DNA from: a virus
Lineage: Duplodnaviria; Caudoviricetes
DNA length: 64,000 nucleotides
Strand: one strand, 5' to 3'
IMG/VR virus record: IMGVR_UViG_2675903043_000002
Coordinates: 1 to 64,000 of that record
Shown here: piece by piece, positions 15,358-64,000 of the stretch
How positions within the stretch are numbered: the stretch's first letter is position 1
How the letters are laid out: every line of letters begins with the position of its first letter
The notes under the pieces: model-generated
The model's database searches: none
What the model saw: only the letters and a program-made list of their open reading frames with translations
Told to the model about the DNA's origin: nothing
Position numbers and translations under genes: made by a program

Positions 15358-15369
15358 GGTGGTTACGGT

Positions 15370-18241: not shown

Positions 18242-18271
18242 TCACCATACAAATCAATACGTTGTATTTTT

Positions 18272-18300: not shown

Positions 18301-18361
18301 TATCGCAGCCCCGTCTGCGAGTTAATAGGAGCACTTCAACACAACAAAAGGAGTGCTTCAA

Positions 18362-18625
18362 ATGCCAAATCAAGTTTCATCCGTTCAATCTGGCCAGAAA
18401 ATCGTATGGCCACGCCAGAACGGTGCTACACGCATTGCCCTTGACGAAAGCGAACTCGCGGCTCGTTGGGGGCTGTCGGTCAAGACCCTGCGCCGCTGGC
18501 GTCAGGAACAGCTCGGCCCGGTCTTCTGTAAGCTGGGTTCCCGCGTCACCTATCTCATCTCTGAAGTCGAAGCGTTCGAGCGGCGTGTTTCGCGCTACTC
18601 GACTTCCGCTCGAGCATACCAATAA
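18362..18625 (+). CDS. AlpA/excisionase-like HTH protein
   Basis: LDESELAARWGLSVKTLRRWR...GPVFCKLGSRVTY. Confidence 0.85.
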   Translation: MPNQVSSVQSGQKIVWPRQNGATRIALDESELAARWGLSVKTLRRWRQEQLGPVFCKLGSRVTYLISEVEAFERRVSRYSTSARAYQ

Positions 18626-18635
18626 GGGGAAAGAC

Positions 18636-19127
18636 ATGAACGATCTGACCATCTTCCCCGCCGACATCAATGAGATGTCCGTGAGCCAATTGGCCGCGTT
18701 ATTACCTGAGCAAAAGCACGAGATTAGTAAGAACCTTGATTGCGCCAGCGAATGGCTGAAAAGAGCTCGCGCCAAGTTCGATGCGGCGCTGGATCAGTGC
18801 TACAGCGAGCAAACTTCTGCCATCCGTCACGCATCCGGCAAGGATTTCGGTGTATGCCATCTCACTGATGGGTTATTGCGCATCACAGTCGATCAGCCTA
18901 AACGCGTGTCATGGGATCAGGCGCAGCTATCCCTTCTTGCCAAGCGTATCGAGGACTCCGGTGAGCATGTCAGTGATTACATCGACATCGAGTATTCAAT
19001 TGCGGAATCCCGCTACACCAACTGGCCCACTCCCATGCAAGAGCTGTTCAGTTCAGCACGTACCGTAAAACCTGGCAAAGCAAGCTATCGCCTTGCATTG
19101 CTTAGCACAGAAGGAAAATCAGCATGA
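18636..19127 (+). CDS. Phage hypothetical protein (recombination module)
   Basis: Start MNDLTIFP after a GGGGAAAG RBS; PKRVSWDQ motif; overlaps the next gene. Confidence 0.7.
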   Translation: MNDLTIFPADINEMSVSQLAALLPEQKHEISKNLDCASEWLKRARAKFDAALDQCYSEQTSAIRHASGKDFGVCHLTDGLLRITVDQPKRVSWDQAQLSLLAKRIEDSGEHVSDYIDIEYSIAESRYTNWPTPMQELFSSARTVKPGKASYRLALLSTEGKSA

Positions 19128-19885
19128 GCAATATTATTCCGTTCGAATTTGAAAATCATACCGTGCGCGTTAATCTCGATGCAGATAATGAGCCATGGTT
19201 CAATGCTAACGATATCTGTAAGGCGCTAGAACATGGCAATGCACGACAAGCGCTTGAATCCCATGTCGACAAGGATGATGTCCAAAAAATGGACGTCATC
19301 GATAGTCTAGGACGCAATCAACGCGCTAACCATGTCAATGAATCCGGGTTATATGCACTGATTCTTGGCAGTAATCTGCCAAAAGCCAAGAAGTTCAAAC
19401 GCTGGGTGACGCATGAAGTATTGCCCTCGATCCGTAAAACCGGTTCCTATGCAGTGCCGGGTGCTCCCTCCCCGTTGGCGCAGCCGACGCAGGATCGCGT
19501 CAATGCGCTACTTATGATTGGTGAAGCGATCACCAAAGTGCCCGGCGTCAAGCCCAGCATCGCCATGGCTGCCACCCTGACCTGCATTCAGGAAAACACC
19601 GGACTTGCGATCGAAACCCTGCGCCGGGCGTTGCCCATCAACAATGAACCGATCTGCAGCATGAACCCGACTAGTCTGGGCGAGCATCTTGGTCACTCAG
19701 CACGGGCCGTGAATAGATGCCTGTCTGCACTGGGCTATCAGCAGCGCAATGAGCGTGACGAGTGGGAATTGACCGAAGCCGGCCAGGCATGGGGTGAAGC
19801 ATTGCCCTATTCGCGAAATGGTCATTCTGGTTACCAGATTCTTTGGAATCCTGCGGTGCTGGAACAGCTGAAGGAGGTGGCGTAA
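19124..19885 (+). CDS. BRO-N domain antirepressor-like protein
   Basis: PFEFENHTVR, PWFNANDIC, VNESGLYALI and FKRWVTHEVLPSIRKTG motifs. Confidence 0.9.
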   Translation: MSNIIPFEFENHTVRVNLDADNEPWFNANDICKALEHGNARQALESHVDKDDVQKMDVIDSLGRNQRANHVNESGLYALILGSNLPKAKKFKRWVTHEVLPSIRKTGSYAVPGAPSPLAQPTQDRVNALLMIGEAITKVPGVKPSIAMAATLTCIQENTGLAIETLRRALPINNEPICSMNPTSLGEHLGHSARAVNRCLSALGYQQRNERDEWELTEAGQAWGEALPYSRNGHSGYQILWNPAVLEQLKEVA

Positions 19886-48936: not shown

Positions 48937-49466
48937 GCATGCTGACTTACATCACGCAGGCGGAAATAAAGAATGCAGCCAAGGAACTGGACGGCAAAGT
49001 ATTGACCAGACCTGCGCTGTTAGTCACCGATGGCTTGGCGATGATTTATGCGGTTGACGTCGACATCGGCCAGAACTATCCGCTCAAGAATGTGCCGATT
49101 GCACGTGCCAACCGTAATTTGCTCTACGCCGAAGTGGGGGCGGCAGTCAGACTCAGGCGAAGCGAATCCGGACACTATGAGGTGATAGGCTTTTCTCAGG
49201 AGCAACCGGGCAGCTTTTTTCGGGTGCCCATCACTCTCCCCTCATTTACTTTTGGTAACGCAGGCATCATCACCGGCGCCAACCCAGCTCTACCACCCTC
49301 ACCCTTGCCAACCAGCTCGATCGTAATCGGCGAGCCCCAGGACAATACCTTGGTGGGTAGACCGCTCACCTATGCAGAACTGGCCATGCTTGGAACCTAT
49401 GGTTTAACCCCATACGGGGCGACCGGCATCTTTAAAGGTGGCGTATTACAGGAGATATATTCGTGA
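48933..49466 (+). CDS. Minor tail protein
   Basis: Coupled ORF after the hub-like gene. Confidence 0.5.
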   Translation: MSMLTYITQAEIKNAAKELDGKVLTRPALLVTDGLAMIYAVDVDIGQNYPLKNVPIARANRNLLYAEVGAAVRLRRSESGHYEVIGFSQEQPGSFFRVPITLPSFTFGNAGIITGANPALPPSPLPTSSIVIGEPQDNTLVGRPLTYAELAMLGTYGLTPYGATGIFKGGVLQEIYS

Positions 49467-50635
49467 CGTTACAGCTGCAACGCTTCATTAATGGCGATAC
49501 CAATTACATCACGAAACACAACAGCAACCTCGATTTGATCGAGGCAGCCATCGCCTCGCTGGAATTGCTGGCTAGCAACAGTACGGCAGCGAGCAGCGTC
49601 AATGTGGCCAAAGCATTTCAGGCGCTGTTTGGCGTAAGCGCGAGTTTAATCGGTGCGGATAGTTATAAATGCACCGGCTCAGGCAATAATCTGACGGTGC
49701 AGCCTGGCTTTTGCTGGCGGCCAAGCTTGAATGCAGTAGTATCCAAAACGACCATTACCACTATCAGCTTCTCTGGTGTTTCTGCGGGTACCTGGTACAT
49801 AACCGTCGATTCGAGCGGTACCCCTATCCGCACCAATAGCATTACTGAAGCAGCTTATAGCATAGTGTGGACCGGCTCGGCCTTTGGCACCATTACCCGC
49901 TTGCTCAATGTGGTGTGGGGCGCGGCCGATGAAGTGGCAGCACAGAGTAGTACCGTGCTTGGTACAAGCTTTACCAGCCTCGACAGCAGATTGGAAGCGA
50001 GTGAAAACAAGGCGGTGGCGGGCGATCTGGCGAGAACGTATCTATTAGGCAGACTGAGCAAATCAGTAGCAGGTAATAGCAATGTTACTTTGACTGCCGA
50101 TGAGGCGAATAACCTGGAGCTGGTATTCACCGGTGCAGTATCGGGCGAGATCAACATCTCCGTACCGCTCAGCAATGCGCCGCGCTCCTGGCTAGTAATC
50201 AATAATACCACTGGCGGCTATAAGCTTACCCTAAAAGGGCTGAGTGGCACCGGTGTAGCTATGCCTGTTGGCACCGCTTTCTGGGTCTATCACGACGGCA
50301 CTAATATTCTGGCACTCCCTAAAGCAGCCGTTCTCACCCTCCCCTATAACACCAGCATAACTGCAGATTTCTCATGTGCAGACATCATCAAAATCACGCT
50401 CGGCGGTAATGCCATCATTACGCTCACAGGAGCAAAGGACCGGCAAAAATGCATGCTGGAATTAACGCAAGATAGCGTGGGAGGAAGAACTATAACGCTC
50501 GTGAATCATCGCTTCGGTTCGGATTTAACCAATATAACGTTATCTACCGGGCCAGGGTTGACAGACAAGATCGGTTTTATTTATGACGCGGTCGCAGCCA
50601 AATTTGACGTGGTCGCTTTGATGAGGGGGTTCTGA
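49463..50635 (+). CDS. Tail fiber-like protein
   Basis: Ser/Thr/Gly-rich; WLVINNTTGGY and LELTQDSVGGRTIT motifs seen in fiber proteins. Confidence 0.6.
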   Translation: MTLQLQRFINGDTNYITKHNSNLDLIEAAIASLELLASNSTAASSVNVAKAFQALFGVSASLIGADSYKCTGSGNNLTVQPGFCWRPSLNAVVSKTTITTISFSGVSAGTWYITVDSSGTPIRTNSITEAAYSIVWTGSAFGTITRLLNVVWGAADEVAAQSSTVLGTSFTSLDSRLEASENKAVAGDLARTYLLGRLSKSVAGNSNVTLTADEANNLELVFTGAVSGEINISVPLSNAPRSWLVINNTTGGYKLTLKGLSGTGVAMPVGTAFWVYHDGTNILALPKAAVLTLPYNTSITADFSCADIIKITLGGNAIITLTGAKDRQKCMLELTQDSVGGRTITLVNHRFGSDLTNITLSTGPGLTDKIGFIYDAVAAKFDVVALMRGF

Positions 50636-51657
50636 TGAGTTTAATCTTTTTTGATGGTTTCGAGACTTACGCTACCGCTGATATTTTGAAAGAATGGAAC
50701 AGCACCACCGGTCCAGTGGCGATCAGCGCCACAGGGGGTAGACGCGGTGGAGGTGCTTTGTTGGCACCGAGTTCCTCCTCTTTTGGCTGGGCGTCCAAGA
50801 CGCTGCCCGCAAATTACTCTACCTTGATCGTGGGGTTTTCATTCAGCCCGAGCATTTTGCCTTCTTTAACCAATTTCATCCTTCGTCTCATGGATGGTGG
50901 AACTCAACAATTAGAATTAGGCGTTAACCCAGCGGGTAATGTTGTCGTGAGCCGCAACGGCACGGTTTTGGGAACCAGCACTGCCGTGCTTGCCGCAGCT
51001 GAGCAGTATGTGGAATTGAAAGCTACGATCCATGACACTTCTGGTGCCTTTGAGGTGAGATTGAACGGAGTCAATATTCTGTCTGCCTCGAATGTCGACA
51101 CTAAAAATACCGCCAATGCTTTTGTCAATCAGGTGGCTTTGGGGGTACCTGGCAATACCGGCCTCTCTTCGATATTCAAGTATGATGATTTTTATCTGCT
51201 CGATACCACGGGACCTGCGCCCAACAATGATTTTCTGGGTGATGTGCGCATCGATGCGGTTTATCCTAGCGCGGATGGGAATTACACCGATTGGACGCCA
51301 AGCACAGGTACCAGCCATTATGCCTTGGTGGATGATCCCACGCCCAACACCACCGATTACAATGCGAGCAATGTGATCGGACAGAAAGATAGCTATGTGA
51401 TGGGCGATCCGCCATCATTAGCCAGCCAAATCATTTACGGAGTCAGAGTGAAAGTCGCTGCGCTCAAGGATGATGCCGGCTCTCGCTCGCTTAAAATCGG
51501 TATCCGATCTGGCACTACCGATAGCCTTGGCGCTGCCCAGGCGTTATCCACTTCGCAAATCTATTACTCGAACATTCACGAAGTGGACCCGAACACCGGG
51601 GCAGCCTGGACACCGGCTGCGGTTAACGCGATGGAAGTTGTCATCGAGTCGGCATAA
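50635..51657 (+). CDS. Virion structural protein, beta-sandwich / lectin-like
   Basis: FFDGFE start, YVELKA, YDDFYL and DPNTGAAWT motifs. Confidence 0.55.
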   Translation: MSLIFFDGFETYATADILKEWNSTTGPVAISATGGRRGGGALLAPSSSSFGWASKTLPANYSTLIVGFSFSPSILPSLTNFILRLMDGGTQQLELGVNPAGNVVVSRNGTVLGTSTAVLAAAEQYVELKATIHDTSGAFEVRLNGVNILSASNVDTKNTANAFVNQVALGVPGNTGLSSIFKYDDFYLLDTTGPAPNNDFLGDVRIDAVYPSADGNYTDWTPSTGTSHYALVDDPTPNTTDYNASNVIGQKDSYVMGDPPSLASQIIYGVRVKVAALKDDAGSRSLKIGIRSGTTDSLGAAQALSTSQIYYSNIHEVDPNTGAAWTPAAVNAMEVVIESA

Positions 51658-52316
51658 TGACGGCAGCTCGATCAAGCCAAGTTGTTGCGGAGATACTGCG
51701 CAACAACACAGCAGTTAAAGCGCACGCTAGTCAAGCGGCCGCCGCAGTTTTACGCAAAAATACGAGTGTCAATATCCAGGCGAGTCATGCCATCGCCGGA
51801 GTATTGCGGCAAAATACAGCGGTCAAAGCACAAGCGCACCAGCTTATTGCGTCTATTTTACGCAAGGAGGTGACGCCACCCAATATTCAGGTAAGCCAAT
51901 TAACCGCAGAGACATTGAGGCCGTCGATCATCACTGCACAGGTTAGTCAAGTCGTAACCGAGGTAATTAGCGCAGAGCGAACCTTGAAGGCAATCTTACC
52001 GCTCAGCGTAACACTCCAGGCTGATCTGGTGTCTGGCTTGGTTCTGGGGTCAATCTTTACCGCATCTCTCGATACCGAAGCCAGATTGGAGCTTGGCACT
52101 GAGCTGGCTTTCACACAATTTTCCACATCGATCGAGGTGCAAGCCGCATTGCAGTTTCAGTCAAGATTATCGGCTATCTTCCCTACTCATACCGCTACGC
52201 AAGCAAGTTTGCAGCAGGGCTCTGAATTGATGGTCACCCTACCCATTACGCTCAAACAGCGTGCTGGCTTGAAAGTTTATCCCGAATCCGTTACTGGGTT
52301 TTTCTTATTGTTTTGA
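51657..52316 (+). CDS. Tail-region protein with ~18-aa tandem repeats
   Basis: Repeats such as SQVVAEILRNNTAVKAHA / SQAAAAVLRKNTSVNIQA / SHAIAGVLRQNTAVKAQA. Confidence 0.6.
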   Translation: MTAARSSQVVAEILRNNTAVKAHASQAAAAVLRKNTSVNIQASHAIAGVLRQNTAVKAQAHQLIASILRKEVTPPNIQVSQLTAETLRPSIITAQVSQVVTEVISAERTLKAILPLSVTLQADLVSGLVLGSIFTASLDTEARLELGTELAFTQFSTSIEVQAALQFQSRLSAIFPTHTATQASLQQGSELMVTLPITLKQRAGLKVYPESVTGFFLLF

Positions 52317-52328
52317 TCAGGAGTCACT

Positions 52329-52742
52329 ATGAGTTCAGCTACGAATATGCTGGAAGAATCTATTGGCAACCATCTGTTACGCACGGCTACATGGCCAAAA
52401 CCAGCAGGCATTTATATTGCGCTTTTTACTACGCTTCCGCTCGAAGATGGCACCGGTGGCGTAGAGGTGTCAGGCGGTAACTACGCCAGAGTGCAGAATG
52501 GCCCTAGTGATGCTGCCTGGAATGCGCCCACGGGCGGCAATGGTGAGTTCTCTAATGCTGCAGCAGTTGTGTACGGCGCACCTAATGCCAATTGGGGAAA
52601 CGTAGTCGGCGCAGGTATTTATGATGCTTCTACCGGTGGCAGCCTACTAGCGATGGCCAATCTCGATACGACCAGGAATATCGTGGCAGGCGATCCAGCA
52701 CCGAATTTCCCAGCGGGCGCATTGAAATTCATCTTTGCTTAA
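52329..52742 (+). CDS. Small tail-fiber-associated protein
   Basis: YIALFTT, GGVEVSGGNYAR, WGNV and GIYDASTGG motifs. Confidence 0.65.
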   Translation: MSSATNMLEESIGNHLLRTATWPKPAGIYIALFTTLPLEDGTGGVEVSGGNYARVQNGPSDAAWNAPTGGNGEFSNAAAVVYGAPNANWGNVVGAGIYDASTGGSLLAMANLDTTRNIVAGDPAPNFPAGALKFIFA

Positions 52743-52783
52743 CATCACTTTCTTTTCTCATCCTGTTTCATCTCACCCCTACC

Positions 52784-52803
52784 CCGCCTTTGGCGGTTTT
52801 TTT
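52784..52803 (+). terminator. Terminator-like hairpin between tail and lysis genes
   Basis: CCGCC-TTT-GGCGG followed by T7. Confidence 0.55.
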
Positions 52804-52820
52804 ATTTCTGGAGCTTACAA

Positions 52821-53108
52821 ATGAATCTACCTACTCTGTATAACGGCATGGTCGTCATGCCGCAAGATGAGTTCGAACAGTTGCTCGAACAAGCAGCCGC
52901 ACGCGGGGCCAAGCGTGCATTAGCAGATGTCGGCCTGGAAGGCGAAGATGCTGCGCACGACATTCGTGAGCTGCGTGATCTGCTCGATGCTTTCAATACC
53001 GCCAAGCGTACCGCCTGGCAGACGATAATCAAGATCATTACCACAGGCTTTGTTCTAGCTCTAATTGCAGGCGCACTACTAAAAATTGAATTATTTGGAG
53101 GTCAGTAA
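52821..53108 (+). CDS. DUF6127 family holin-like membrane protein
   Basis: AARGAKRALADVGL...DIRELRDLL plus a C-terminal TM helix; precedes the endolysin. Confidence 0.7.
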   Translation: MNLPTLYNGMVVMPQDEFEQLLEQAAARGAKRALADVGLEGEDAAHDIRELRDLLDAFNTAKRTAWQTIIKIITTGFVLALIAGALLKIELFGGQ

Positions 53109-53620
53109 TGGTTGAAACTATCATTGATGACATCATTCGCCGTGAAGGCAACTTCATCAATCACCCCAATGATCGCGGTGGTCCAACTAAATATGGCATC
53201 ACGGCCAAAACACTCGGAGGATGGCTTCATCTAGGTCGGCTAGCCACAAGCGAGGAAGTGGCGGTGCTCACCGAAGCAGAAGCACGAGAAATTTATCGTC
53301 ATCAATACATTGTAGAGCCAGGCTTTGATGCAATCACGCATCCGGCGCTGCAAGCCCTGCTGGTAGATAGCGGTGTGCATTCTGATCCAAGAACGGCAGT
53401 GCATTGGCTGCAAACAGCCTTAAGTGTGGTCGCTGATGGAGTAATTGGCCCGAAGACACTTGCTGCTATAGCGGCTACCGATCAAAATAAACTCTATAGA
53501 AAAGTTCTTGCAGCACGCGTTCGCCACTTGGGGCGATTGATCACCAATGATCCCAAGCAATCGGTCTTTGCCGCTGGCTGGATGAACCGAATGGCAGAAT
53601 TTGTGGAGGGTACCGTATGA
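53108..53620 (+). CDS. Endolysin, glycoside hydrolase family 108 with PG-binding domain
   Basis: REGNFINHPNDRGGPTKYGIT, DGVIGPKT and FAAGWMNR motifs. Confidence 0.9.
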   Translation: MVETIIDDIIRREGNFINHPNDRGGPTKYGITAKTLGGWLHLGRLATSEEVAVLTEAEAREIYRHQYIVEPGFDAITHPALQALLVDSGVHSDPRTAVHWLQTALSVVADGVIGPKTLAAIAATDQNKLYRKVLAARVRHLGRLITNDPKQSVFAAGWMNRMAEFVEGTV

Positions 53621-54045
53621 TTCCAATTCTGACTATGTTAGCGCCAGGATTGATTGAGGCTGGCAGCCGTCTGCTCGATCGGTTGATTCCCGATCCGGCT
53701 GAACGCGAAAAAGCCAAGCTCGCATTACTTCAGGCCGAAGGGCAACAAGCATTGCAGGAGATGCAAACAAGCTTGTCGGCCATCCTGGCTGAAGCGAATT
53801 CCGCTGATCCGTGGACGAGCCGGGCACGGCCGACTTTTCTGTATGTGATCTACGGTGTAATTTTGCTTTGTGTACTCGGATCTATCCTTGGCATCTGGTG
53901 GCCGGCTCATGTTTTCCAGGCAGCGGAGAATTTGAATAAGCTTTTGGGAGCTGTGCCGGAGAGCTTGTGGTGGTTGTTTGGGACTGGTTACCTTGGTTAT
54001 ACAGGGGCTAGGAGTTTTGACAAGTGGAAAGTGCCAGGGCGATAG
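53617..54045 (+). CDS. Holin (3TM family)
   Basis: DRLIPDP, WTSRARPTFLY and GYLGYTGARSFDK motifs. Confidence 0.85.
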   Translation: MIPILTMLAPGLIEAGSRLLDRLIPDPAEREKAKLALLQAEGQQALQEMQTSLSAILAEANSADPWTSRARPTFLYVIYGVILLCVLGSILGIWWPAHVFQAAENLNKLLGAVPESLWWLFGTGYLGYTGARSFDKWKVPGR

Positions 54046-54616: not shown

Positions 54617-55564
54617 TCAGTCCGTCATCTCGGGCGCATCCCAATCGGTCAGCCTTGCTTCCCCGGTCTGGTAGAATTGCTTCACCAACTTCACGTATTC
54701 CAGAAAATCCCGATTCTCAGTTGCCAGCCGGTTAGCCATGCCCCAATCGATCTCATCTCTTTCGCGGGCAGGAATCAAGACCTGGCTTTCTGCCGGGTTG
54801 TCGGCATCCAGTTTGATCAGGCCGATGCCGTGCGCCGCGAACAGCATTCGCAGTTCCTTGAGCGTGTCCTGGCCCTCGATCTCCGCTGCGACCAGATAGC
54901 CAAAATTGGCCCAAGACGAGTTGGAAACCGCTTGGAAAAAGCATTCACGCACGTTCGACCGGTTGATCAGGAACTTGGCCTCGAACGACCACAACTTGGT
55001 GCGCTTGTCGGAATACTGATTCACACAGTCTCGCACCTCCTGGTGCCACTCAGCACCCAAGTCCTCCATCCCGACCACGTCCGGGTACAGCCAACGGTTG
55101 CCGTTCGGCCCTCGTTTGTTCGATGAGCGCTTCTCGTCGATACGCTTCGAATAGACGCCAAACTCCTCCCACAGATACATCGAAAGCAGTGGGTACATGG
55201 CATGCTCGCCAAGCTTGGCATTGTTACTATCTGCCGTGTGCGTGGCAGTCACGCCCTCAGCCGCCGCAACTTCGGCAACATCAGATTTCTCCGAATAGTA
55301 GTACTTGCGCGGCCGACCCTCGGTAGTCTTCAGTTCTGGGTTCCGTTTCTGTAAACGTGGGCGCTGCGAGCTAATTTCCGCGACCAGCTGCTGCACCAAA
55401 TCACCATCGGATCTGATGTAGTCACCGCGACTATTGGATTTCTTCTCCTGACACTCAGCGGGATAGGTACTAAAAATCCACTCTGCGATCTGCCTTGCAG
55501 CCAGCTTTTCTTCGGGCCGTGCCTTCAAACAATCCAGTACGGCTTTCGCCAAATTCAAAGCCAT
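54617..55564 (-). CDS. hrgA: HrgA / COG2958 family protein (HTH + PD-(D/E)XK)
   Basis: EHAMYPLL, NRWLYPDVVG, WSFEAK and FFQAVSNSSWANFGYLVA motifs. Confidence 0.85.
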   Translation of the reverse strand: MALNLAKAVLDCLKARPEEKLAARQIAEWIFSTYPAECQEKKSNSRGDYIRSDGDLVQQLVAEISSQRPRLQKRNPELKTTEGRPRKYYYSEKSDVAEVAAAEGVTATHTADSNNAKLGEHAMYPLLSMYLWEEFGVYSKRIDEKRSSNKRGPNGNRWLYPDVVGMEDLGAEWHQEVRDCVNQYSDKRTKLWSFEAKFLINRSNVRECFFQAVSNSSWANFGYLVAAEIEGQDTLKELRMLFAAHGIGLIKLDADNPAESQVLIPARERDEIDWGMANRLATENRDFLEYVKLVKQFYQTGEARLTDWDAPEMTD

Positions 55565-55612: not shown

Positions 55613-57085
55613 TTACCACAGCCCTAATCCCTGGTAATGCTGCCGTTTTGTTTCTAATTCCACCGAGTTATTGATCACACGTAAAGCGTGTTTTAAATAT
55701 CCCACAGCGGCAGAATAGTCTCGCATCTGCTCACAAACTTGGATCAAGCGGATTAGAACTTGGGGTTTGCTTGGGCACTTTCTATTGATCGCCTCAAGTG
55801 CTTCGCGCGCCTCCGGAAAGTTGGCTTCCAAGCCAAATAGGATCGCGCGCAAGAAATCAAGCTCTAACGATTCTCCATCCTGCCTCTCAGCATCCTGAAT
55901 GAGATCCTTTGCGGGGTTCATTTTCCGAAGCGTCAGTAACGTCTTAATGCCAAGCAGCCGGATCAATTGTTGATCGTTTCCCTGCAAGTCGCTCTTGTAT
56001 TCTCGATTGAATACTTCTTCGAACTGGAACAGTCTGTTTGCGCGATAGAGCGCATTGAGCTGTTGCAACAAAGCAGCAGAGTCGTGGGAGCGGGAAAATT
56101 CATCTTCCGCTATTCTTGCCGCCTTTAGGTAGTCCTTTGTCTCCAGAGCCTCGACAACTGATGTCGACCAATCTACAGAAACTTGTCCACCAAATGATGT
56201 TATGGCGTACTGCGGGGAGCTTAATTGATTTTGCCTTGCTAGTTCAAAAGCAGTGCGGAGAGATGCAATATCGTGGTATCGATCTGAAGGTAATCTTTCC
56301 ATGCACCTAAGGATCAGCGCATCAACCATCGGTACAATGTTAGCATTGATTTCACTGGGGCGCTTAAATGGCGCATGGCGACGCACTTGAGAGGGTGTGT
56401 CATGAGGTAGTTGCCCCGTTAGCAACTGGTATAAAAGAACGCCGAGGCTGTAGATGTCGCCTCGCAGCAAGTCCTCAAAAGTCCCTTTACGAGAGACACT
56501 ATCGGAAAATTCTGGAGCAGCGTACAGAACTGTGCCGCCGTTTTCCCTGGTTCGGACATAAATTTCCTCTGGAAGAGCGGAGCTTCCAAAGTCAGTCAAC
56601 TTCACCAAATCACCCGCACCCACAAGAATATTGTGCGGCTTGATGTCGCCATGCGAAATGGGTGTTGGCAAGGTCGCCAAGAATCCAACGGCGTCGAGCA
56701 CCTGCGCGTAGATGCTGAACAGTCGCTCAAACGTGTTACCGAAATTTTGATTCCTTCGCTCCAATTTTTGGGCAAGGCTTTGGCTCGGGAAATACTCCAT
56801 TTCGATGAAGAACCATTCGTTCTCCGGAGGAATTCTCCCCATATTGCAAATCCGAACAATATTGGGATGAGGATCTATTGTGAGTAGTTCTTTCCCCTCG
56901 GCAAGTAGGCGATCATCTTTTGTCAGGTCTTTAGGTATCTTCACCGCGACGATGGTGCTGTCTGACAGTCTCTCCGCCCGCCATACCCAACCATGACTGC
57001 CGTCACCGAGGCATTCGAGCAAGAGATACCTATCGCCTAAGCGCTTATTGGTTCCCGGCAGAAAGTGTGCGGACTTAATATTCAC
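55613..57085 (-). CDS. Hanks-type Ser/Thr protein kinase with C-terminal TPR-like region
   Basis: LGDGSHGWVW, VAVKIPK, HGDIKPHN, DFG, APE and DIYSLG motifs; helical C-terminus. Confidence 0.92.
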   Translation of the reverse strand: MNIKSAHFLPGTNKRLGDRYLLLECLGDGSHGWVWRAERLSDSTIVAVKIPKDLTKDDRLLAEGKELLTIDPHPNIVRICNMGRIPPENEWFFIEMEYFPSQSLAQKLERRNQNFGNTFERLFSIYAQVLDAVGFLATLPTPISHGDIKPHNILVGAGDLVKLTDFGSSALPEEIYVRTRENGGTVLYAAPEFSDSVSRKGTFEDLLRGDIYSLGVLLYQLLTGQLPHDTPSQVRRHAPFKRPSEINANIVPMVDALILRCMERLPSDRYHDIASLRTAFELARQNQLSSPQYAITSFGGQVSVDWSTSVVEALETKDYLKAARIAEDEFSRSHDSAALLQQLNALYRANRLFQFEEVFNREYKSDLQGNDQQLIRLLGIKTLLTLRKMNPAKDLIQDAERQDGESLELDFLRAILFGLEANFPEAREALEAINRKCPSKPQVLIRLIQVCEQMRDYSAAVGYLKHALRVINNSVELETKRQHYQGLGLW

Positions 57086-57627
57086 ATCAACCTCTCACAC
57101 CGAATCTGTTTGAGAAGCAGAGTTCCGCTGCGTTCAATCTCAAAAATAAACCGGCTAAACAGAACAGCTGTATTTCGTATTGCTGGCACCTGCGCTCCAA
57201 CCGACGATTTGAAGCCTTGTCGACATCGCTGCAGAAACACATCTTTATTCGGCGCAGAGACAACCCCTTTGCTCCATGCCGAAAGAATCAGCACTGTAGG
57301 AGCATCTCCCCACCTCATGGATGCCTCAAGTAGATTGCAAAGCTTCTCGTCGAGTTTTTTTTGTCCTCGATCGGTGCCATCGAAGCGTTCGAACTCAATC
57401 AATGCATCAGGCGTGCGCTGCGTTCGACTAAACCAGGTTGAGTCGGAACGAATGTCCGCACCATGCGTCATCGGCACTGGACACTCTGCTACCGCCATAA
57501 AGCCAAGCTCAGATCCAAGCTCATTCCAGGCACTGCAACCCAAGCTGTGAATTAAGACATCCTCGTCGCGAACACCCCAGCTAGACAGCATGGGGTAGCT
57601 GCGATCGATAAACTCCAGTGAGGACAT
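57082..57627 (-). CDS. Small PD-(D/E)XK-like (restriction-endonuclease fold) protein
   Basis: AVAEC...IRSDSTW...ALIEFER pattern (E...D...ExE); likely start MSSLEF at 57627. Confidence 0.55.
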   Translation of the reverse strand: MSSLEFIDRSYPMLSSWGVRDEDVLIHSLGCSAWNELGSELGFMAVAECPVPMTHGADIRSDSTWFSRTQRTPDALIEFERFDGTDRGQKKLDEKLCNLLEASMRWGDAPTVLILSAWSKGVVSAPNKDVFLQRCRQGFKSSVGAQVPAIRNTAVLFSRFIFEIERSGTLLLKQIRCERLM

Positions 57628-57652
57628 TTCGGCACAAATGCGCCCTGTGAGG

Positions 57653-59338
57653 TCAGTCACCAAAGCGCCCCCAAACTCGCAGCACCTCGGGCGATTCACC
57701 ACCGTGTATCAGTGCCTTGTCACCAACTTTAACCAGGAGTGGAGCAGGAATAGATCGCCCACATACCAAAGCCTCACCCGTTGACAGATTAGGTAACTCG
57801 TCCAAGTCAGCCTTGCTTACCATGTCAGACGCTTTTGCGATAAAGCGCTGGTCGTCCGGGTTCTTCAGTCGCATGGTGATCAGAGTGTTGCACTGTGATG
57901 TCACGTCCGCGTCCAGCTTTGATGGACGCTGGCTAACAATAGCAAAGCCCACTCCGAATTTCCGACCTTCGCCAGCAATTTTCTTGATGATCCGGTGGCT
58001 GACCGCATTTCCACCGGCAGGAGCAAAATTATGTCCTTCCTCATAAACCAGGAAACAAGGCCGCAATGGATCTGTCTTGCTGGATGCTGCGCGCAAAATC
58101 TCACTGGAAAGTAGCGCGCAGATCACCTGTTTGGCCGTATCGCTCAGCCCTTGCAGATCGATCACAACGAGACGCCCCTGTTTATTCGAAGGGCGTCCGA
58201 CCATTTTGTAAATATCGGTCGGGGCTGACATAGCCGCAGAGTAGAAGCTTTGCGCCTCGTTGAGCACTCGCGACAACTTCATCGAAATCACCGCAGCACT
58301 GCGGCCATTCAATGCTTTGCCTTCTGCTTCAGAAAGATCATCCCATTCGCGCAACTCTTCGATGCCATCTCCGAGAAAATGTCGAAGGCGATTGATATCT
58401 CGTGGCTCGGTCTTGTCTGCTGTCCGCCAGTATCGCAACGCAACATCAACCACACGCTGCTGTGGCTCGGTCAGCCCGGGGAGAATCTCTGCCACATCAT
58501 CCATTTCAAAGTGATCGAACTGCAGCGCAAGCTGGGCGTTCTTGCCAGCGTACTTGTGCTTGAACGATTCATTTTGTGGTGTGTAAACATGGATACCAGC
58601 CCCGGCTTGCTGCAATCGTTCCAAGGTATCGCGGATTTTTGGAAGCGCAGTACGATCGCGTCCGTCTTCACTTTCTGACAGACCTCCCGAGAAATTCAAT
58701 TGCCCCTTCTCCAGGGCTCTTCCATACTCACCATGCGGATCGAATACAATAACGGTTCCATTGTTCAGTGCCACTAAGCGTTCAATGATGCGGCCGACGG
58801 TGTAGGACTTACCCGATCCCGTCATCGCTAGAACTGCCATATGCTCAGTGACCAGTTTGTTTACTTCTAAAAAGACCGGCACCGTATTATCGCCACGCTC
58901 ATACCCAACGAGATTCCCTAGATGCAAACTGGTGTGTTCGTTGAATTCGTAGAAATCGCTTAAAAATTGAAAGTCCACTGTTTCAACGGCGGCGCCGGGA
59001 TCGAGCGGGCGGCGTGGAATTTTTATCTGACGAGACACTGGATCGCGGTAACCGACCAGTTCGACATTTGCATAGAGATTCTCGCCGGTAACACTGGCGC
59101 CCGGGAGTAGCTCGAGTTCAGTCACGCCACCACCGAATCCAGCGTTGAACAGCATGTTGGTTCGAGTAATCCTAGTGACTCGCCCAAGCACAGGCACCAC
59201 GCTTTCATCCGCGCGCTCCTGGTGCATGATGCGGACAAACTCTCCTCGACGTACGGAAAAGGAATCCTGAACCACCATCGTCAGCTGTGCTGCGTCACCG
59301 GTGTTGCCAACCAGCTTTCCAAGTACCTTGTGTTTCAT
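57653..59338 (-). CDS. herA: HerA-family ATPase / DNA translocase (HAS barrel + DUF87)
   Basis: HMAVLAMTGSGKS, VFDPHGEY, LVYEEGHNF, EGRKFG and SQRPS motifs. Confidence 0.9.
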   Translation of the reverse strand: MKHKVLGKLVGNTGDAAQLTMVVQDSFSVRRGEFVRIMHQERADESVVPVLGRVTRITRTNMLFNAGFGGGVTELELLPGASVTGENLYANVELVGYRDPVSRQIKIPRRPLDPGAAVETVDFQFLSDFYEFNEHTSLHLGNLVGYERGDNTVPVFLEVNKLVTEHMAVLAMTGSGKSYTVGRIIERLVALNNGTVIVFDPHGEYGRALEKGQLNFSGGLSESEDGRDRTALPKIRDTLERLQQAGAGIHVYTPQNESFKHKYAGKNAQLALQFDHFEMDDVAEILPGLTEPQQRVVDVALRYWRTADKTEPRDINRLRHFLGDGIEELREWDDLSEAEGKALNGRSAAVISMKLSRVLNEAQSFYSAAMSAPTDIYKMVGRPSNKQGRLVVIDLQGLSDTAKQVICALLSSEILRAASSKTDPLRPCFLVYEEGHNFAPAGGNAVSHRIIKKIAGEGRKFGVGFAIVSQRPSKLDADVTSQCNTLITMRLKNPDDQRFIAKASDMVSKADLDELPNLSTGEALVCGRSIPAPLLVKVGDKALIHGGESPEVLRVWGRFGD

Positions 59339-60477
59339 GATTCAAACCCTTCATCGAGACCGGACAACCACGTGCTTTCTATGTCGTTACTCCGCAGTGC
59401 TTCATTTAGCCCCTGCTGATAGTAGGCAGAGAACTTTTCGAGAATATTGAGTTGCTGCCGACTTAGCAGCTGTGGCAGTGGCATTGCTTTCTTCTGGCTT
59501 TGCATATCCAGAATCATCAGTCGGGATGCCACGGTATCCAGCAAGGCAGAGTTCCAATCGGACTCTTCGCCAGCCAACTGAGCCATTTTTATTTGACTTG
59601 CGCGCGCGCTGCGGAAGTGAAAACCGATAACACCTTGGCTTACTTCGCTGGCGGGTTCCATTCGGGAGCGATTCTCGGTCATCCGAAAAGCGATAGTTCG
59701 AGTGAAGTTACCCAATATGCCATTGATAAAACGAGTATCGCCAATTCCGCTCAGCCGCTCTTCCAGTCCTTCGAGCATGGCTGCCGAGTCCGGTGCAAAA
59801 CCATCGTTAGCCAAAATATGCTTGCGACCTCCTTCAGTGCGCAAATCTTGTCGAGCGATGCTGACAATGGCAGAGAATCGCTCAGCCAGAATGCTGACTA
59901 ACACAGGACCTTCCGAATTCCATGGAAACAAGGCTTTCCGGTTATTCTGCCAAAACTGTTCGATAATGTCCCTGGTCTTTTCAAACTCAGCCCAGTGCCG
60001 CATATTCCGCTTTAATGGCACCATTTCCCGATCGATGAATAGCGGGGTATCGATAAGAATTAGGTTGGCAAAACCATTCTGTTGCAGCAGTCGCTCTACC
60101 AGGGCATAACAGTGCCGCATCTCCACTAAGTCCAGACGTTTTCTCTGCGCTTCGAAATCGATGTCGTCCAGCTCGGATACTGAATCAGACCCAGCAGTAC
60201 TGATCTTATTGTCCTGAATCGTTAGATCTGTCCGTACAGCTGCAGATGCGTAGATAAAGCCACCCAAAGCACGGTGAATACATGAGTAACTCGCAATACC
60301 GGAGACCGCGAGATTGACGACGGATGGTCGCTTGATGGCCTTAATTAAACCGGCATCCCGAAACAAGGGTGCCACTTGCTCAATATCCCGAATCTGTTTG
60401 AGTAAGCGACCAGCACTGCCAGGCAATCTTAACTGACTATCGATAGCCAATGCTTGCGCAAGATTAGTTGTTTTCAT
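59335..60477 (-). CDS. NurA-like protein, probably catalytically degenerate
   Basis: Directly upstream of HerA with ATGA overlap; LILIDTPL matches NurA motif II and MPLPQ the C-terminal motif, but the motif I position reads AVSGI. Confidence 0.55.
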   Translation of the reverse strand: MKTTNLAQALAIDSQLRLPGSAGRLLKQIRDIEQVAPLFRDAGLIKAIKRPSVVNLAVSGIASYSCIHRALGGFIYASAAVRTDLTIQDNKISTAGSDSVSELDDIDFEAQRKRLDLVEMRHCYALVERLLQQNGFANLILIDTPLFIDREMVPLKRNMRHWAEFEKTRDIIEQFWQNNRKALFPWNSEGPVLVSILAERFSAIVSIARQDLRTEGGRKHILANDGFAPDSAAMLEGLEERLSGIGDTRFINGILGNFTRTIAFRMTENRSRMEPASEVSQGVIGFHFRSARASQIKMAQLAGEESDWNSALLDTVASRLMILDMQSQKKAMPLPQLLSRQQLNILEKFSAYYQQGLNEALRSNDIESTWLSGLDEGFES

Positions 60478-60480
60478 TGG

Positions 60481-61305
60481 CTAGGCCTCATTCCTCAAAT
60501 TTTCGGCAAATGCCCAGTATTTACACCCCATCAAGTGGGCCAACCCCTGTTCGGTCAATCCATTGTCATTTATCAACCCAGCATTTCTTAGGCGAACCAT
60601 GCTTTCCGGCAGATCGAAGTTGGCCAAATTCAATAGTGGAACGGCATATGTCTTCAACCTGCTCAGCAAGCCCTCAGCTGTCGCGACATTGAATCCGTAG
60701 CTGCACACCAACACGGTGACATCCTCTGGGCGTATCGCGTCTTCTTGGGGCTTTGTTTCTTCAGTAGTAACAGATGGCAGGCCACAATGTCGCTCAATCT
60801 TGGCCAGGAAGTCATGCACCAGCGCCGCCTGATCTAACAAACTAATGGACCAAAGCGGTAGTGTCGTGGCAGCGATCAGGCCGCTATTGGAATGTCCCTT
60901 CCAGTATCGTGTATGGCAAGTCGGCTCCCCCAGCGGCATATCCTCTGTGCAAGCACCGTTTACCCCGCGCAGGCGGTACGTCAGTTCGCCCTCCAGCATG
61001 CTCATAAGCAGTGCTCGTTTGACGGCTACCGCAATTGACGGTGCCAACTCAACCACCCAGTCCAGAAAATGAAAAATGCTCCCTTCCTGGTATGGGGGGA
61101 GTAGCAGTAATGAACAACCGGGTTGGCGTACCCACGCCGCACACTCCTCCTGAGATTCTCTCGATGCTTGCAACTGCTCGCCGGTCATCAAAACAAAGCC
61201 GGTCTGCGGTAAGCCATGCTCGGGCGACTGGGAGATCCCCAGCAAGCTGGCCAGGAAACGCCCTCTACGGTGCGCCTGCAATTCCGGAGTGAGATAGAGC
61301 TTCAC
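60481..61305 (-). CDS. Hypothetical protein in the HerA operon
   Basis: 274-aa coupled ORF; C-terminal LRNAGLINDNGLTEQG suggests a winged helix. Confidence 0.7.
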   Translation of the reverse strand: MKLYLTPELQAHRRGRFLASLLGISQSPEHGLPQTGFVLMTGEQLQASRESQEECAAWVRQPGCSLLLLPPYQEGSIFHFLDWVVELAPSIAVAVKRALLMSMLEGELTYRLRGVNGACTEDMPLGEPTCHTRYWKGHSNSGLIAATTLPLWSISLLDQAALVHDFLAKIERHCGLPSVTTEETKPQEDAIRPEDVTVLVCSYGFNVATAEGLLSRLKTYAVPLLNLANFDLPESMVRLRNAGLINDNGLTEQGLAHLMGCKYWAFAENLRNEA

Positions 61306-64000
61306 GCATTGCCCCCGAAATAGAGCTTCATTCTCAGGATGCCCTTGGCAACCAAGGCCTCTTGAGCGGGCGGGGACAGTGCTGGGTTCTTGCCCTCGGC
61401 GATGGCCGTGGCCAAATCTTGCCAGCTCGCGAAATCAAGGCCAGTCCCACTTAACAACTGGTTTGCCTTGTTTTCCCATTGTGATTGCTGCATATCAATC
61501 GTAATTTGCAAATCATGCAAGCTCAGGGCAGATACGCTAGCCAGGTTGATTGCCGCTGGCACGGTTTCGTTGCAAGCACCGAACAGAGGCGTCAGTACTG
61601 GAAGGTAGCGCTCATTGGTCTGACTGACCAAGGTCTCGCGATGCGATAGAATCGTGTTTTCAACTTTACTGATGGCACCGCCAACACTATGCAACTGAGA
61701 GTGAATGGGGTTGAGCAAACGATCAGGGATGCCGCGGATGGCGCTGAACTGCCCCTTGCGTGCTTGCTCACGAAATTTCTCACGCTCACTCTTGGCCAAG
61801 TCAGCCAAGTCCTCAAACGCGTCGCCAATCAACACTAGTTTTTGAGCGAGCGCTGCAAGCTCTTGGGTGTGTTCTGGTGTCGTGTAACCCGCAGGCATGG
61901 GCTCCAAAACGCGCGCAGCCTCTGCGCATCGAGCCTTCAACTCAGCGAGGTAGCCGGTAATCTCGACAAATTTTTTCTTGCCCACACGATAGCTACTTGC
62001 AATGTGGCCAAGGTTCTCAGTAAGACCCAAAGCCGTTCCATTGTCGATATTGACACCGGCTTCTTCGGCGAGCAGGCGCAAGCGATCCGCCGCCTTGTCC
62101 AGTTGAAGTGAGCGCAAGTAATGCAGCAAGGTATCCGAGCTCGCGGTACCCTCTGCCGTTGCGGTATCACTCTCATTGCGCTGCTGCAGGGCGCCATCAA
62201 GAATATTGTTCACCGTCTGTAGCGACAGGGTGAATAAGCTGCGCGGGAACATGTCCAGATTCTGCGCATCAGCCTCAATGTCAGTGATCAGATGATTGAT
62301 GCCTTGTTTGATTTGGGATGCGGCTTTCTCCACGTAATCCGCAAACAGCCGGGCCTGTTCGATACGCTGATAGAGCGATAGGCTCTTGTCGTCGAGGCGT
62401 AGGGTATTGATGTTGCCCAAGGTGATCTCAGGTACTTGTTCCGGCTTGACCCCCGCGACCCGCTGCAGCACCTCAAAGCGTCCGGCAAGCAGAGCAGGCA
62501 TCTTGTCAGTAATGGCAGCCAAGGCATCAGCCCCCTGCAGAGCGAGCGCTTCTTCGTTGACCTTCAGCGCGTCAAACGCTGAGCGGGCTGCTTTGATTAG
62601 CTCGTGCGCTTCCACCGTTTCAGTGCCGGTGGGTGATTTGCCTAAGGGTGCAAAGAGTCCCGGAATGCGGTCATAGCCAAAAACACGCTCCAACTTGGCA
62701 ACCACAGCCTTATAGCCGTCAGCACTGTTGCCGTTAAACCAGTTCTGCGCCTCGTTGATGGCGTTATCCAGTTTGGCCCGTGGCAGGCTTTGCCATTTCG
62801 CTGTTGTTGCAGTGGCATCTTGTAGCTGCAACAGATGCAACTCACCACACCACCACATCCAATCATCGAACACGTTCTTGGCTGTCACGCTGGCATGTTG
62901 CAAGTAGCCCCAGTACCAACCTCGCTTGGCCTTCTCCAGCGTCCATTCCTGTGTGCTGACCGGGTTCGCTATACGTGCCAAGAAGTAGGGGAATTTTGCT
63001 TGCGCCTGCTGCGGGTTGGCCAAGTCAGCAAACAAGCCCGCGTGCTCTTCCTTCGCAAAACCAAGGCTGAGCAGCTTGCTCGGCAAGGCCAGGCGTTGCA
63101 TCAGCGATGCAATTTCTTCGGCATCAATACCGTGCCTGGTTTCCAGATCATTCAAGCCGGAAAGGGTAGGCTTCTTGAACACAAACAAGGTCCAGGCCTG
63201 CAGCAGCAGATCGCGATCCTGCGTGTTGATCTTGCCGGTTGGTCTCAGCGGCCAGGCAATCAAGCCCCGCTCATTCAAGCGGGCGCGCCATTGGTGGATC
63301 GCTTGATAGGCAAAGTCTCGCAAAGCATTGAGCTTGTTCTTGAATTTGCTCGTCAGTCGCGCCTCATCAAGCGAAAAACCCTTGCACTGTTCGGGCGTGA
63401 GGCCGATGCGTTCCAGCTGATCGACTTCGCTGGGGTTCAGGTAGTAGAGCAGCAGGTCGTCTTTGAGCTTTTCACTCACGTCGCCCCGGTTGTACTGCTC
63501 CATCAAGTGGGTAGATGCCGTGAATGCCATCACCGGGAAGCGCCCTTCATTGGTGTGGCGCGTTGCAGCCAGTTGATGCAGTCGATCCAGCTCATCACGG
63601 TTGTTCACCCAGGCAAACCATGCCAGATTGTCCGGGTGCAGCTTCAACCCCTCGCAATACAGCAAGCCACCACGCTGACCAGTCCCTTGCCCACGCGAGC
63701 TGGCTTGAATGCACAGATTCTCTTTATTGGAGAGACTGGGCTGTGCGTATTGCCAGTTCTTGTCCAACAAGCGCATCAAGCCCATCAGACGCGCCGTCCA
63801 GCGCAGGCACGGGTTGTGGCTGCTGGCTTGCAAGAAGGTCTTCATCGCCGCTTCGTGCACATCCGCATCGGCCGGGTCGCGGAAGATCATCGAGTTGTGC
63901 TGCTGATTGCGGTAGCGCAGATCCAGTCGCAGCAACATCGCCACGCTGGGGCCAATATGCGTAGCCTCTTCATCCGGCACAAATTGGTCGCTGCCGATCA
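61302..64000 (-). CDS. Large hypothetical protein with coiled-coil C-terminal half (5' end beyond the window)
   Basis: Frame is open from the window edge (no stop between 63980 and 64000); at least 892 aa; its stop overlaps the next GTG. Confidence 0.75.
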   Translation of the reverse strand, partial: IGSDQFVPDEEATHIGPSVAMLLRLDLRYRNQQHNSMIFRDPADADVHEAAMKTFLQASSHNPCLRWTARLMGLMRLLDKNWQYAQPSLSNKENLCIQASSRGQGTGQRGGLLYCEGLKLHPDNLAWFAWVNNRDELDRLHQLAATRHTNEGRFPVMAFTASTHLMEQYNRGDVSEKLKDDLLLYYLNPSEVDQLERIGLTPEQCKGFSLDEARLTSKFKNKLNALRDFAYQAIHQWRARLNERGLIAWPLRPTGKINTQDRDLLLQAWTLFVFKKPTLSGLNDLETRHGIDAEEIASLMQRLALPSKLLSLGFAKEEHAGLFADLANPQQAQAKFPYFLARIANPVSTQEWTLEKAKRGWYWGYLQHASVTAKNVFDDWMWWCGELHLLQLQDATATTAKWQSLPRAKLDNAINEAQNWFNGNSADGYKAVVAKLERVFGYDRIPGLFAPLGKSPTGTETVEAHELIKAARSAFDALKVNEEALALQGADALAAITDKMPALLAGRFEVLQRVAGVKPEQVPEITLGNINTLRLDDKSLSLYQRIEQARLFADYVEKAASQIKQGINHLITDIEADAQNLDMFPRSLFTLSLQTVNNILDGALQQRNESDTATAEGTASSDTLLHYLRSLQLDKAADRLRLLAEEAGVNIDNGTALGLTENLGHIASSYRVGKKKFVEITGYLAELKARCAEAARVLEPMPAGYTTPEHTQELAALAQKLVLIGDAFEDLADLAKSEREKFREQARKGQFSAIRGIPDRLLNPIHSQLHSVGGAISKVENTILSHRETLVSQTNERYLPVLTPLFGACNETVPAAINLASVSALSLHDLQITIDMQQSQWENKANQLLSGTGLDFASWQDLATAIAEGKNPALSPPAQEALVAKGILRMKLYFGGNA

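Follow-up and report, generated by a model that had tools for sequence, protein, structure and literature searches.

The right-hand end of a 64,000-nucleotide stretch of virus DNA (positions 1 to 64,000 of IMG/VR record IMGVR_UViG_2675903043_000002; below, the window) carries the 3' two thirds of an operon of ten co-oriented minus-strand genes, which is probably an as yet unnamed immune system of the restriction-modification (R-M) type, working by the mechanism proposed below. The cassette looks like an unnamed R-M-type phage defence because it starts with a DNA methylase and keeps its gene order in very different bacteria. Since the operon begins with the methylase and a specificity (S) subunit, its core logic is most likely modification-based discrimination between self and non-self. 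The initial annotation had described a six-gene system that senses or translocates on invading DNA; its genes are real, but they are only part of the ten-gene operon, and with the methylase and the S subunit missed, sensing or translocation is most likely not the whole logic.

The window corresponds to bases 3-64002 of a 117,233-bp contig (C120), and the operon crosses its right-hand end. Retrieval of the sequence past position 64000 added four more operon genes, which lie wholly beyond that base on the same strand, and the rest of a large ATPase gene. The full operon spans about 15.4 kb and consists of nine core genes and one small upstream gene. From 5' to 3', the order is a winged helix-turn-helix (wHTH)-like protein, an HsdM-type methylase, an HsdS-type subunit, a protein of 441 amino acids (aa), a 1428-aa ATPase, a 274-aa protein, a NurA-fold protein, HerA, a protein of about 190 aa with a D..ExE..K pattern, and a Hanks kinase with a tail resembling tetratricopeptide repeats (TPR). 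The features are listed below in window coordinates, those beyond 64000 being window equivalents.

55613..57085, minus strand: Hanks-type Ser/Thr kinase with TPR-like tail, 490 aa; the last gene of the operon
57082..57660, minus strand: small candidate PD-(D/E)xK-type nuclease, about 180-192 aa (motif conservation)
57653..59338, minus strand: HerA-family hexameric translocase ATPase, 561 aa (Pfam DUF87)
59335..60477, minus strand: NurA-fold protein, 380 aa (predicted fold)
60481..61305, minus strand: 274-aa protein without a family match (open reading frame, ORF)
61302..64000, minus strand: ORC/Cdc6-clade, BrxC-like ATPase (predicted fold), the C-terminal 898 of 1428 codons lying in the window
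65588 (contig C120 65590), minus strand: 5' end of the 1428-aa ATPase gene, beyond the window
65585-66910, minus strand: 441-aa protein (ORF beyond the window)
66910-68427, minus strand: HsdS-like subunit, 505 aa (PADLOC Specificity_I)
68427-70553, minus strand: HsdM-like methylase, 708 aa (Pfam N6_Mtase, PADLOC MTase_I)
70581-70979, minus strand: wHTH-like protein, 120-132 aa (weak Pfam WH_Egal)

All junctions in the operon are overlapping or near-abutting, as judged from the ORF map and a base-by-base reading. The six minus-strand ORFs of the window lie exactly where the initial annotation had placed them, and the base-by-base reading agreed with its junctions: GTGA at 61305/61302, a 3-nt gap at 60481/60477, ATGA at 59338/59335 and GTGA at 57085/57082. 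Its 25-nt gap between the HerA stop and the small gene is correct for an ATG start at 57627, but a GTG at 57660, overlapping HerA by 8 nt, appears from sequence comparison at least as likely to be the start. Many orthologues, and many gene calls in a library of 1.84 billion proteins, begin at the GTG position; the longest ORF extends to 57702 (206 aa), and with either start the small gene is tightly packed against HerA. The first gene of the original six, given as a protein of more than 890 aa, is real but cut by the window, its full length being 1428 aa. Its start forms an ATGA overlap with the stop of the preceding gene, a GGGAGGGGG stretch standing ahead of the ATG; the upstream core genes likewise have overlapping stops and starts, and a 27-nt gap separates the wHTH-like gene from the methylase gene.

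Conservation of this arrangement was followed in 58 loci, obtained by a pattern scan with one genome per species and compared by tblastn with eleven proteins. The nine core genes stand in the same order and on the same strand in 49 of the 58, the other nine loci all ending at contig ends, and no locus has a gene missing inside the cassette; the small upstream gene is also present in 42 loci. The hosts include Gamma- and Betaproteobacteria, Desulfobacteria, three cyanobacteria, one Blastocatellia, one Fibrobacter and one metagenome-assembled genome of Sumerlaeota. Median identity to the window proteins runs from 85% for HerA, the most conserved gene of the cassette, through the methylase (70%), the NurA-like protein (68%), the kinase (59%), the ATPase (55%), the small protein (49%), the 441-aa and wHTH-like proteins (39% each) and the 274-aa protein (34%) to the S subunit, the most variable protein (29%). 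A fast-changing S subunit beside a slow HerA is what one would expect if target specificity diversifies. The catalytic motifs of the methylase, kinase, HerA and large ATPase are intact in 48-55 of 50-55 sequences.

The cassette is foreign to the genome in which it was found, because its GC content (54.4%, against 44.3% for the genome) stands apart and close copies exist in other genera, the nearest having 88-92% identity in the ATPase. The NurA-like protein of the window shares a 90% cluster with Pseudomonas and Aeromonas sequences, and one sequence of that cluster occurs on 924 contigs. The cassette is also horizontally mobile. The flanks differ between loci, and the only neighbour that recurs is a 315-aa ORF, in two of the 58.

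In Escherichia coli, the cassette was detected in 252 of 5426 complete genomes, always on the chromosome, by blastn with the HerA gene (72% DNA identity over that gene); a megablast with the operon in full gave no match in E. coli genomes or plasmids, so that these copies were found by the HerA search only. Both E. coli loci that were inspected (NZ_CP127252 and NZ_CP148423) have the same ten genes. In both, the cassette directly follows, with almost no spacing, genes for a phosphorothioated-DNA-binding restriction endonuclease and McrB/McrC-family proteins; one locus adjoins a P4-like element with a KwaB-like gene, and the other adjoins toxin-antitoxin systems and hsdRMS. It may be that the endonuclease, McrB/McrC and the cassette form a fixed composite island in E. 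coli and are not neighbours by chance. In RefSeq, the 1428-aa ATPase of the E. coli copies, their small upstream protein and their four unknown proteins are all annotated 'hypothetical protein'. Given the conserved linkage, the patchy spread across phyla and the defence-island neighbours in E. coli, the earlier description of a multi-gene, translationally coupled, defence-like cassette stands.

The genes that open the operon resemble the modification half of a Type I R-M system. The methylase matches Pfam N6_Mtase (2.1e-22) and fits the PADLOC model MTase_I from end to end (1478.6 bits). It carries the motifs DPTCGS and NPPF, a motif NPPF/Y being present in 50 of 50 sequences, and with 708 aa it has about 290 extra N-terminal residues and an insertion relative to Type I HsdM. 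The S subunit, which consists of two target-recognition halves, fits PADLOC Specificity_I over its full length (5.5e-64). The NCBIfam models MADS2 on the methylase (113.9 bits, cut-off 720) and MADS5 on the S subunit (119.5 bits, cut-off 400) are outscored by far by the generic Type I models. The wHTH-like protein gave a weak winged-helix match (Pfam WH_Egal, E 0.0035).

The 1428-aa ATPase has a Walker A motif, WGRGKS, in all 55 sequences and a Walker B motif in 51 of the 55. Weak Pfam matches to KAP_NTPase at the Walker A region were obtained for 14 of 16 members (best E 0.002), a language model placed the protein near AAA_22/ATPase_2/STAND clusters, and no DUF499, BrxC or PglY sequence match was found with PADLOC or Pfam. 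An AlphaFold2 (AF2) model of residues 1-700 (predicted local distance difference test score, pLDDT, 79.8) had as its best Foldseek match BrxC of Acinetobacter BREX (9zdx_A, E 3.4e-6). With VIA-align, BrxC gave the longest alignment (Z 12.3, 358 residues aligned, model residues 14-550, root-mean-square deviation 5.9), and Drosophila and archaeal ORC/Cdc6 proteins gave Z 12.7-12.0 over about 255-290 residues (7jgr_G, Z 12.7, 255 aligned); TnsC and RdrA came next. At least 403 related 90%-identity clusters exist, and the 120 relatives listed are all 1400-1470 aa long, have no Pfam domain and are 'hypothetical' where named. Matches of residues 1184-1297 to influenza HA2 in a PDB profile search were dismissed as coiled-coil noise.

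Pfam, PADLOC, NCBIfam and PDB profiles provided no usable family match for this ATPase or for the 441-, 274-, 380- and ~190-aa proteins, and PADLOC-DB v2 and NCBIfam release 20 hold no models for five cassette proteins. For the 274-aa protein, a Pfam scan of 30 members gave DUF4350 in three (best E 0.005) and wHTH-PRTase_assc in two, and a PDB profile search nothing convincing. This second most variable protein of the cassette was found in 55 of the 58 loci, the other three being ended by contig ends. The fast-evolving 441-aa and 274-aa proteins are candidates for sensor or adaptor parts.

The identity of HerA, as originally assigned, was confirmed by Pfam DUF87 (4.2e-44), with a weak HAS-barrel match (0.0014), and by the PADLOC models HerA (5.4e-57) and mad8 (1.1e-26); the NCBIfam model helicase_HerA gave 195.6 bits, which is under its cut-off. 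Walker A and Walker B motifs are present in 55 of 55 sequences.

The neighbouring 380-aa protein, which had been called NurA-like, has no sequence-level match in Pfam or PADLOC, and its predicted structure indicates that it has the NurA (RNase-H-like) fold. Its AF2 model (pLDDT 78.8) was matched by Foldseek to Sulfolobus solfataricus NurA (2ygk_A, E 2.8e-11), and VIA-align superposed 277 of 319 residues on the same chain (Z 19.4, root-mean-square deviation 4.2). Nine of the ten top VIA ranks are NurA chains, including those of HerA-NurA and TdpAB complexes; the exception, TM1739 at rank 9, is a structure deposited under the name of a putative RNase-H-like nuclease. After the top ten, Argonaute and EndoV appear at Z of about 10. 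The likeness thus holds at the level of the fold, but the canonical first catalytic Asp is missing. The aspartate on strand 1, in the DGS motif, is the key catalytic residue of NurA; a pattern of that type ([ILV].[ILV]DG[ST]) occurs in none of the 55 sequences, all of which read (S/A/V/T)-G-(I/V), the residue ahead of the invariant Gly60 being S, A, V or T. Other positions are well kept: hhD[TC]P[LF] and D143 in all 55 sequences, and S/C-E-L/I-D-D-I in 48 of them. DNA cutting by this modelled NurA-fold protein is a candidate activity.

The small protein between HerA and the kinase was earlier said to have a restriction endonuclease fold. What supports this candidate fold is a conserved motif and weak language-model leads; no sequence match was found in Pfam, PADLOC, NCBIfam or PDB. 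The motifs E.P.P, D[IV]R.D and EFER are present in 41 of 41 orthologues. A set of 38 relatives as distant as 18% identity shows no change at W90 or E103, and H52, D87, E105 and K120 are each kept by at least 90% of them (numbering of the 206-aa ORF). As far as sequence can tell, this D..ExE..K pattern fits a candidate PD-(D/E)xK-type active site; its D..ExE part presumably resembles that of BamHI. The nearest named language-model clusters, MunI (0.85) and PDDEXK_11 (0.82), serve as leads only. All 122 representative clusters are stand-alone proteins. The only longer form found, a 411-aa P. aeruginosa protein with a DUF87 domain (P0121, 64% coverage at 88% identity), is probably a broken gene, in which a frameshifted or truncated HerA is read through into the next gene.

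The last gene was correctly described as a kinase with TPR. Residues of about 13-290 match Pfam Pkinase (6.5e-29), and the C-terminal helical region is TPR-like, TPR_14 scoring 5.1e-4, under the Pfam cut-off. PADLOC mad6 matches over the kinase domain (6.8e-41), many PD-T4-6 models match the protein as well, and NCBIfam MADS6 reaches 112.8 bits against a cut-off of 460. The kinase motifs singled out before, VAVK and HGD, are present, and the patterns [VIL]A[VIL]K, H[RG]D.KP.N, DFG and [AS]PE match in 53 of 53 sequences.

Reasoning from family, fold or analogy for each functional step, we infer from the observed gene content, gene order, two folds, motifs and distribution how such a cassette might operate. 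As its family suggests, the HsdM-like methylase would place N6-methyladenine on host DNA, at a strain-specific motif to which the two-domain HsdS-like subunit directs it. By analogy with BrxC, the 1428-aa ATPase could be an ATP-dependent scaffold or DNA-scanning unit, which would join the modification and restriction halves and read the methylation state of DNA. A HerA hexamer with the NurA-fold protein may load on unmethylated incoming DNA and translocate, if fold and family are a guide. Cutting might then be performed by the small D..ExE..K protein, to judge by its motif; the NurA-fold protein could perhaps cut as well, using non-canonical residues. The kinase with its TPR-like tail might license or restrain the machine by phosphorylation or, alternatively, sense a phage protein, and the small wHTH-like protein is a candidate regulator. 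The cassette probably belongs among the modification-dependent multi-protein defence systems and may well be a distinct family of these; less probably, it is already listed in a supplement or a newer catalogue. More specifically, and tentatively, it could be a distinct and widespread immune family in which the methylase and S subunit mark self, the BrxC-like ATPase couples the halves, HerA acts with a remodelled NurA and a BamHI-like cutter, and the kinase is a gate.

Several points weigh against the cassette being an unnamed R-M-type defence. Neither PADLOC nor NCBIfam gives a system-level call. Apart from E. coli and Pseudomonas, the cassette is seldom present; when 400 genomes of the class were scored, the NurA-like profile was found in the genome of the window and in none of the 399 others. 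The defence-context neighbourhoods come from two E. coli loci and this window only. No sequencing run recorded as RNA was listed. A nuclease is not confidently identified, because the NurA-fold protein is devoid of the strand-1 Asp, and the small protein has no Pfam family even when ten distant relatives are scanned. The BrxC match of the ATPase is tied with generic ORC/Cdc6, and TM-scores are low, 0.27-0.32. The searches gave no fold assignment for the 441-aa and 274-aa proteins or for the C-terminal ~730 aa of the ATPase.

The initial annotation recognised no named system, and indeed none was found in PADLOC-DB v2, NCBIfam release 20 or RefSeq annotation; nor is the gene set described in the full-text literature searched, subscription journals and supplementary tables being outside its scope. 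It overlooked, however, a partial kinship with MADS, which is the closest named system and comprises mad1-mad8 of Pseudomonas aeruginosa, according to the accessible parts of Maestri et al. (10.1101/2023.03.30.534895) and Zhang et al. (NAR 2026, PMC13662399). Like the cassette, MADS is a large operon with an N6-adenine methylase, a Type-I-like S subunit, a Hanks kinase and a HerA/FtsK-type ATPase together with a presumed nuclease. PADLOC mad6 (6.8e-41), mad8 (1.1e-26), mad2 (2.9e-20) and mad5 (2.3e-11) match the kinase, HerA, methylase and S subunit, and NCBIfam MADS2, MADS5 and MADS6 are the best named matches for methylase, S subunit and kinase. MADS operons also vary in completeness, with subtypes probable and MAD3/4 accessory, in the part of the preprint available (10.1101/2023.03.30.534895). 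We nevertheless consider a divergent MADS subtype rather unlikely, as those NCBIfam scores are all 113-120 bits against cut-offs of 400-720, far below them, and as MAD7 is absent; in the MacSyFinder model of the MADS authors, as given in the same part of that source, MAD6, MAD7 and MAD8 are mandatory and MAD2 and MAD5 accessory. The mad7 hidden Markov model (HMM) had no match at E<=1 in nine cassette proteins or in the whole genome, and the same HMM found a true MAD7 in a control genome (G383) at 4.6e-122. In hhalign, the NurA-like profile against that true MAD7 gave a probability of 0.04, and the 1428-aa ATPase against the true 1813-aa MAD8 one of 0.07. The true MADS locus of G383 (L066, G383:C155:36000-55780; 10335-19781, minus strand), whose proteins are matched by PADLOC Ssp/Dnd models, is built otherwise: its MAD6 is a kinase with an SspF-like domain (1.4e-28), its MAD7 is SspG-like (2.1e-08), and its MAD8, of 1813 aa, is DndH-like (4.2e-06) with a C-terminal HerA-type domain, so that at the sequence level the restriction half of MADS looks like a relative of DndFGH/SspFGH. 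The cassette has none of this architecture. Its HerA is a stand-alone protein of 561 aa, and its kinase has a TPR-like tail in place of the SspF-like domain. It has the 1428-aa ATPase, the NurA-fold protein, the small D..ExE..K protein and two unknowns as extras, the gene order differs, and no OLD-type MAD3/MAD4 (Toprim MAD4) was detected in it. The cassette is therefore not filed as MADS, since MAD7 is absent and the profile comparisons are null; the two share a design but not a restriction half. An unlikely reading, too, is that of a new BREX or BREX-related subtype with a BrxC-type ATPase at its centre and a methylase and a PglW-like kinase beside it. BREX and the cassette, as we read it, are both methylation-based with a large ATPase of the ORC/Cdc6 clade, and BrxC is the best Foldseek match and the longest VIA alignment of the one in the cassette. 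In the accessible text of Rakesh & Krishnan (NAR 2026, PMC12839542), a BrxC-type ATPase is likewise accompanied by a kinase and a methylase in type 2 BREX (Pgl), and one BREX-related system has recruited a HerA/FtsK translocase. The ORC/Cdc6 scores equal those of BrxC, however, and there is no DUF499/BrxC/PglY sequence match. PglZ gave no match in nine proteins with Pfam and PADLOC, a very divergent PglZ-like fold of the 441- or 274-aa protein being beyond a sequence search, and no BrxA, BrxB or BrxL was detected by sequence in the cassette. The methylase is HsdM-type with a separate HsdS, not PglX-like, and NurA-HerA and the small nuclease candidate are without BREX counterparts, the word 'NurA' being absent from the main text of PMC12839542 as far as it is accessible.

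That the cassette serves a mobile element as a weapon or maintenance module, by plasmid or island exclusion or by addiction, rather than acting against phages is very unlikely in our estimate, and it differs from the proposal of an R-M-type defence in target, not in mechanism. The cassette does travel horizontally; it abuts a prophage here, and a P4-like satellite and toxin-antitoxin systems in E. coli. A methylase with a lethal partner acts as an addiction module. Capture systems of HerA/FtsK and Orc/Cdc6 are proposed, in the text available, to intercept conjugating or segregating DNA (PMC10853773). The flanks are not common to the loci, though, and the cassette is therefore not tied to one element. 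Extremely unlikely, finally, is a housekeeping NurA-HerA machine for end resection at double-strand breaks with unrelated neighbours, a reading that the distribution comes close to refuting. TdpAB is a HerA-like/NurA-like pair that forms the restriction half of a phosphorothioate modification system. Like it (PDB 8wfd) and like the NurA-HerA complexes of Sulfolobus, Thermococcus and Deinococcus, the cassette has a HerA-family ATPase beside a NurA-fold protein, encoded by overlapping genes, and among solved structures the archaeal and Deinococcus complexes come closest. In contrast to these, the NurA of the cassette is without the strand-1 Asp (canonical motif in 0 of 55 sequences), the NurA-HerA pair sits within an operon of methylase, kinase and ATPase genes, and neither Mre11/Rad50 nor phosphorothioation genes are present in the cassette. 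A housekeeping role is also at odds with GC content foreign to the host, with occurrence in only 252 of 5426 E. coli genomes and 0 of 399 other sampled genomes of the class, and with an invariable linkage to a methylase, an S subunit and a kinase, seen in all 49 loci that are complete.

Other known systems share parts of the cassette. With Type I R-M it has in common a gamma-class N6-adenine methylase (NPPF, DPxCGS) and a fast-varying HsdS-like subunit; HsdR is not present, as the other seven proteins have no helicase, ResIII or HsdR match in Pfam, PADLOC or NCBIfam. PADLOC models of DndF/G/H and SspF/G/H gave no match on nine cassette proteins. Close in concept, as far as the available text goes, are two groups: HerA/FtsK 'capture systems' with Orc/Cdc6 ATPases and DndFGH (Rakesh, Aravind & Krishnan, NAR 2024, PMC10853773), and the BREX-related systems that Rakesh and co-workers describe. 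In that text, the capture systems have an inactive restriction endonuclease inserted in the Orc/Cdc6 protein (PMC10853773), unlike the cassette, and neither group has a NurA, an HsdM and HsdS pair or a TPR kinase in the parts covered (PMC10853773, PMC12839542); 'NurA' does not occur in the accessible main text of PMC10853773. In Sir2-HerA and DUF4297-HerA, HerA is likewise a motor or platform for an effector, a nuclease in the case of DUF4297. In the sources as far as available, however, those are two-gene systems without a modification module. The PADLOC HerA models of both match HerA of the cassette, and none of their effectors is found in it.

Should the cassette prove to work in defence, it would be a common but unannotated immune system in E. 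coli (252/5426, about 1 in 20) and, in view of the NurA-like sequence on 924 contigs, in Pseudomonas aeruginosa. As about 1 in 20 complete E. coli genomes is positive, it would be directly testable in a standard laboratory host. It could help to explain how, in BREX and in MADS, an unmethylated site leads to restriction by way of a large ATPase scaffold. Its presumed restriction parts (HerA, the NurA-fold protein and the small nuclease candidate) are separate recognisable proteins, not domains in giant polypeptides. If our proposal is true, the NurA fold would have been kept for something beyond canonical catalysis, and the cassette would be the second known case in which a methylation-based system includes a Hanks kinase; one operon would then bring together the principles of Type I R-M, BREX/Pgl, MADS and HerA-NurA restriction modules.

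As to the genomic surroundings, the operon lies at the right flank of a prophage and converges on its lysis module, as had been noted: tail assembly, endolysin and holin genes occupy the plus strand at 49463-54045 (PHROGs). The prophage and the cassette form one block of 51-58% GC in 10-kb bins, at about 11000-54600 of the window for the prophage and about 11000-71000 of contig C120 with the operon included, and the GC content falls just past the small upstream gene, at about C120 71000. No att-like direct repeats longer than 15 nt bound the prophage and operon, no tRNA gene was found near the locus, and promoter-like and terminator-like sites there are not above chance. The cassette may be prophage cargo or a separate insertion.

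The 315-aa ORF (54617-55564, minus strand) separates the kinase gene from the lysis genes of the prophage. The label 'hrgA' that it had been given receives no support from Pfam, PADLOC, NCBIfam or PHROGs, in none of which the ORF has a match, and it is the sole member of its 90% cluster. A copy 91% identical occupies the same position after the kinase gene in a Massilia locus (L048), and a 71% copy is found elsewhere in another locus (L011); the ORF may accompany some copies of the cassette. On the other side, directly upstream of the cassette, there is a gene for a UmuC-type translesion polymerase (window-equivalent 71681-73000, minus strand; Pfam IMS 2e-37, IMS_C and DUF4113), which is adjoined by a 156-aa ORF.

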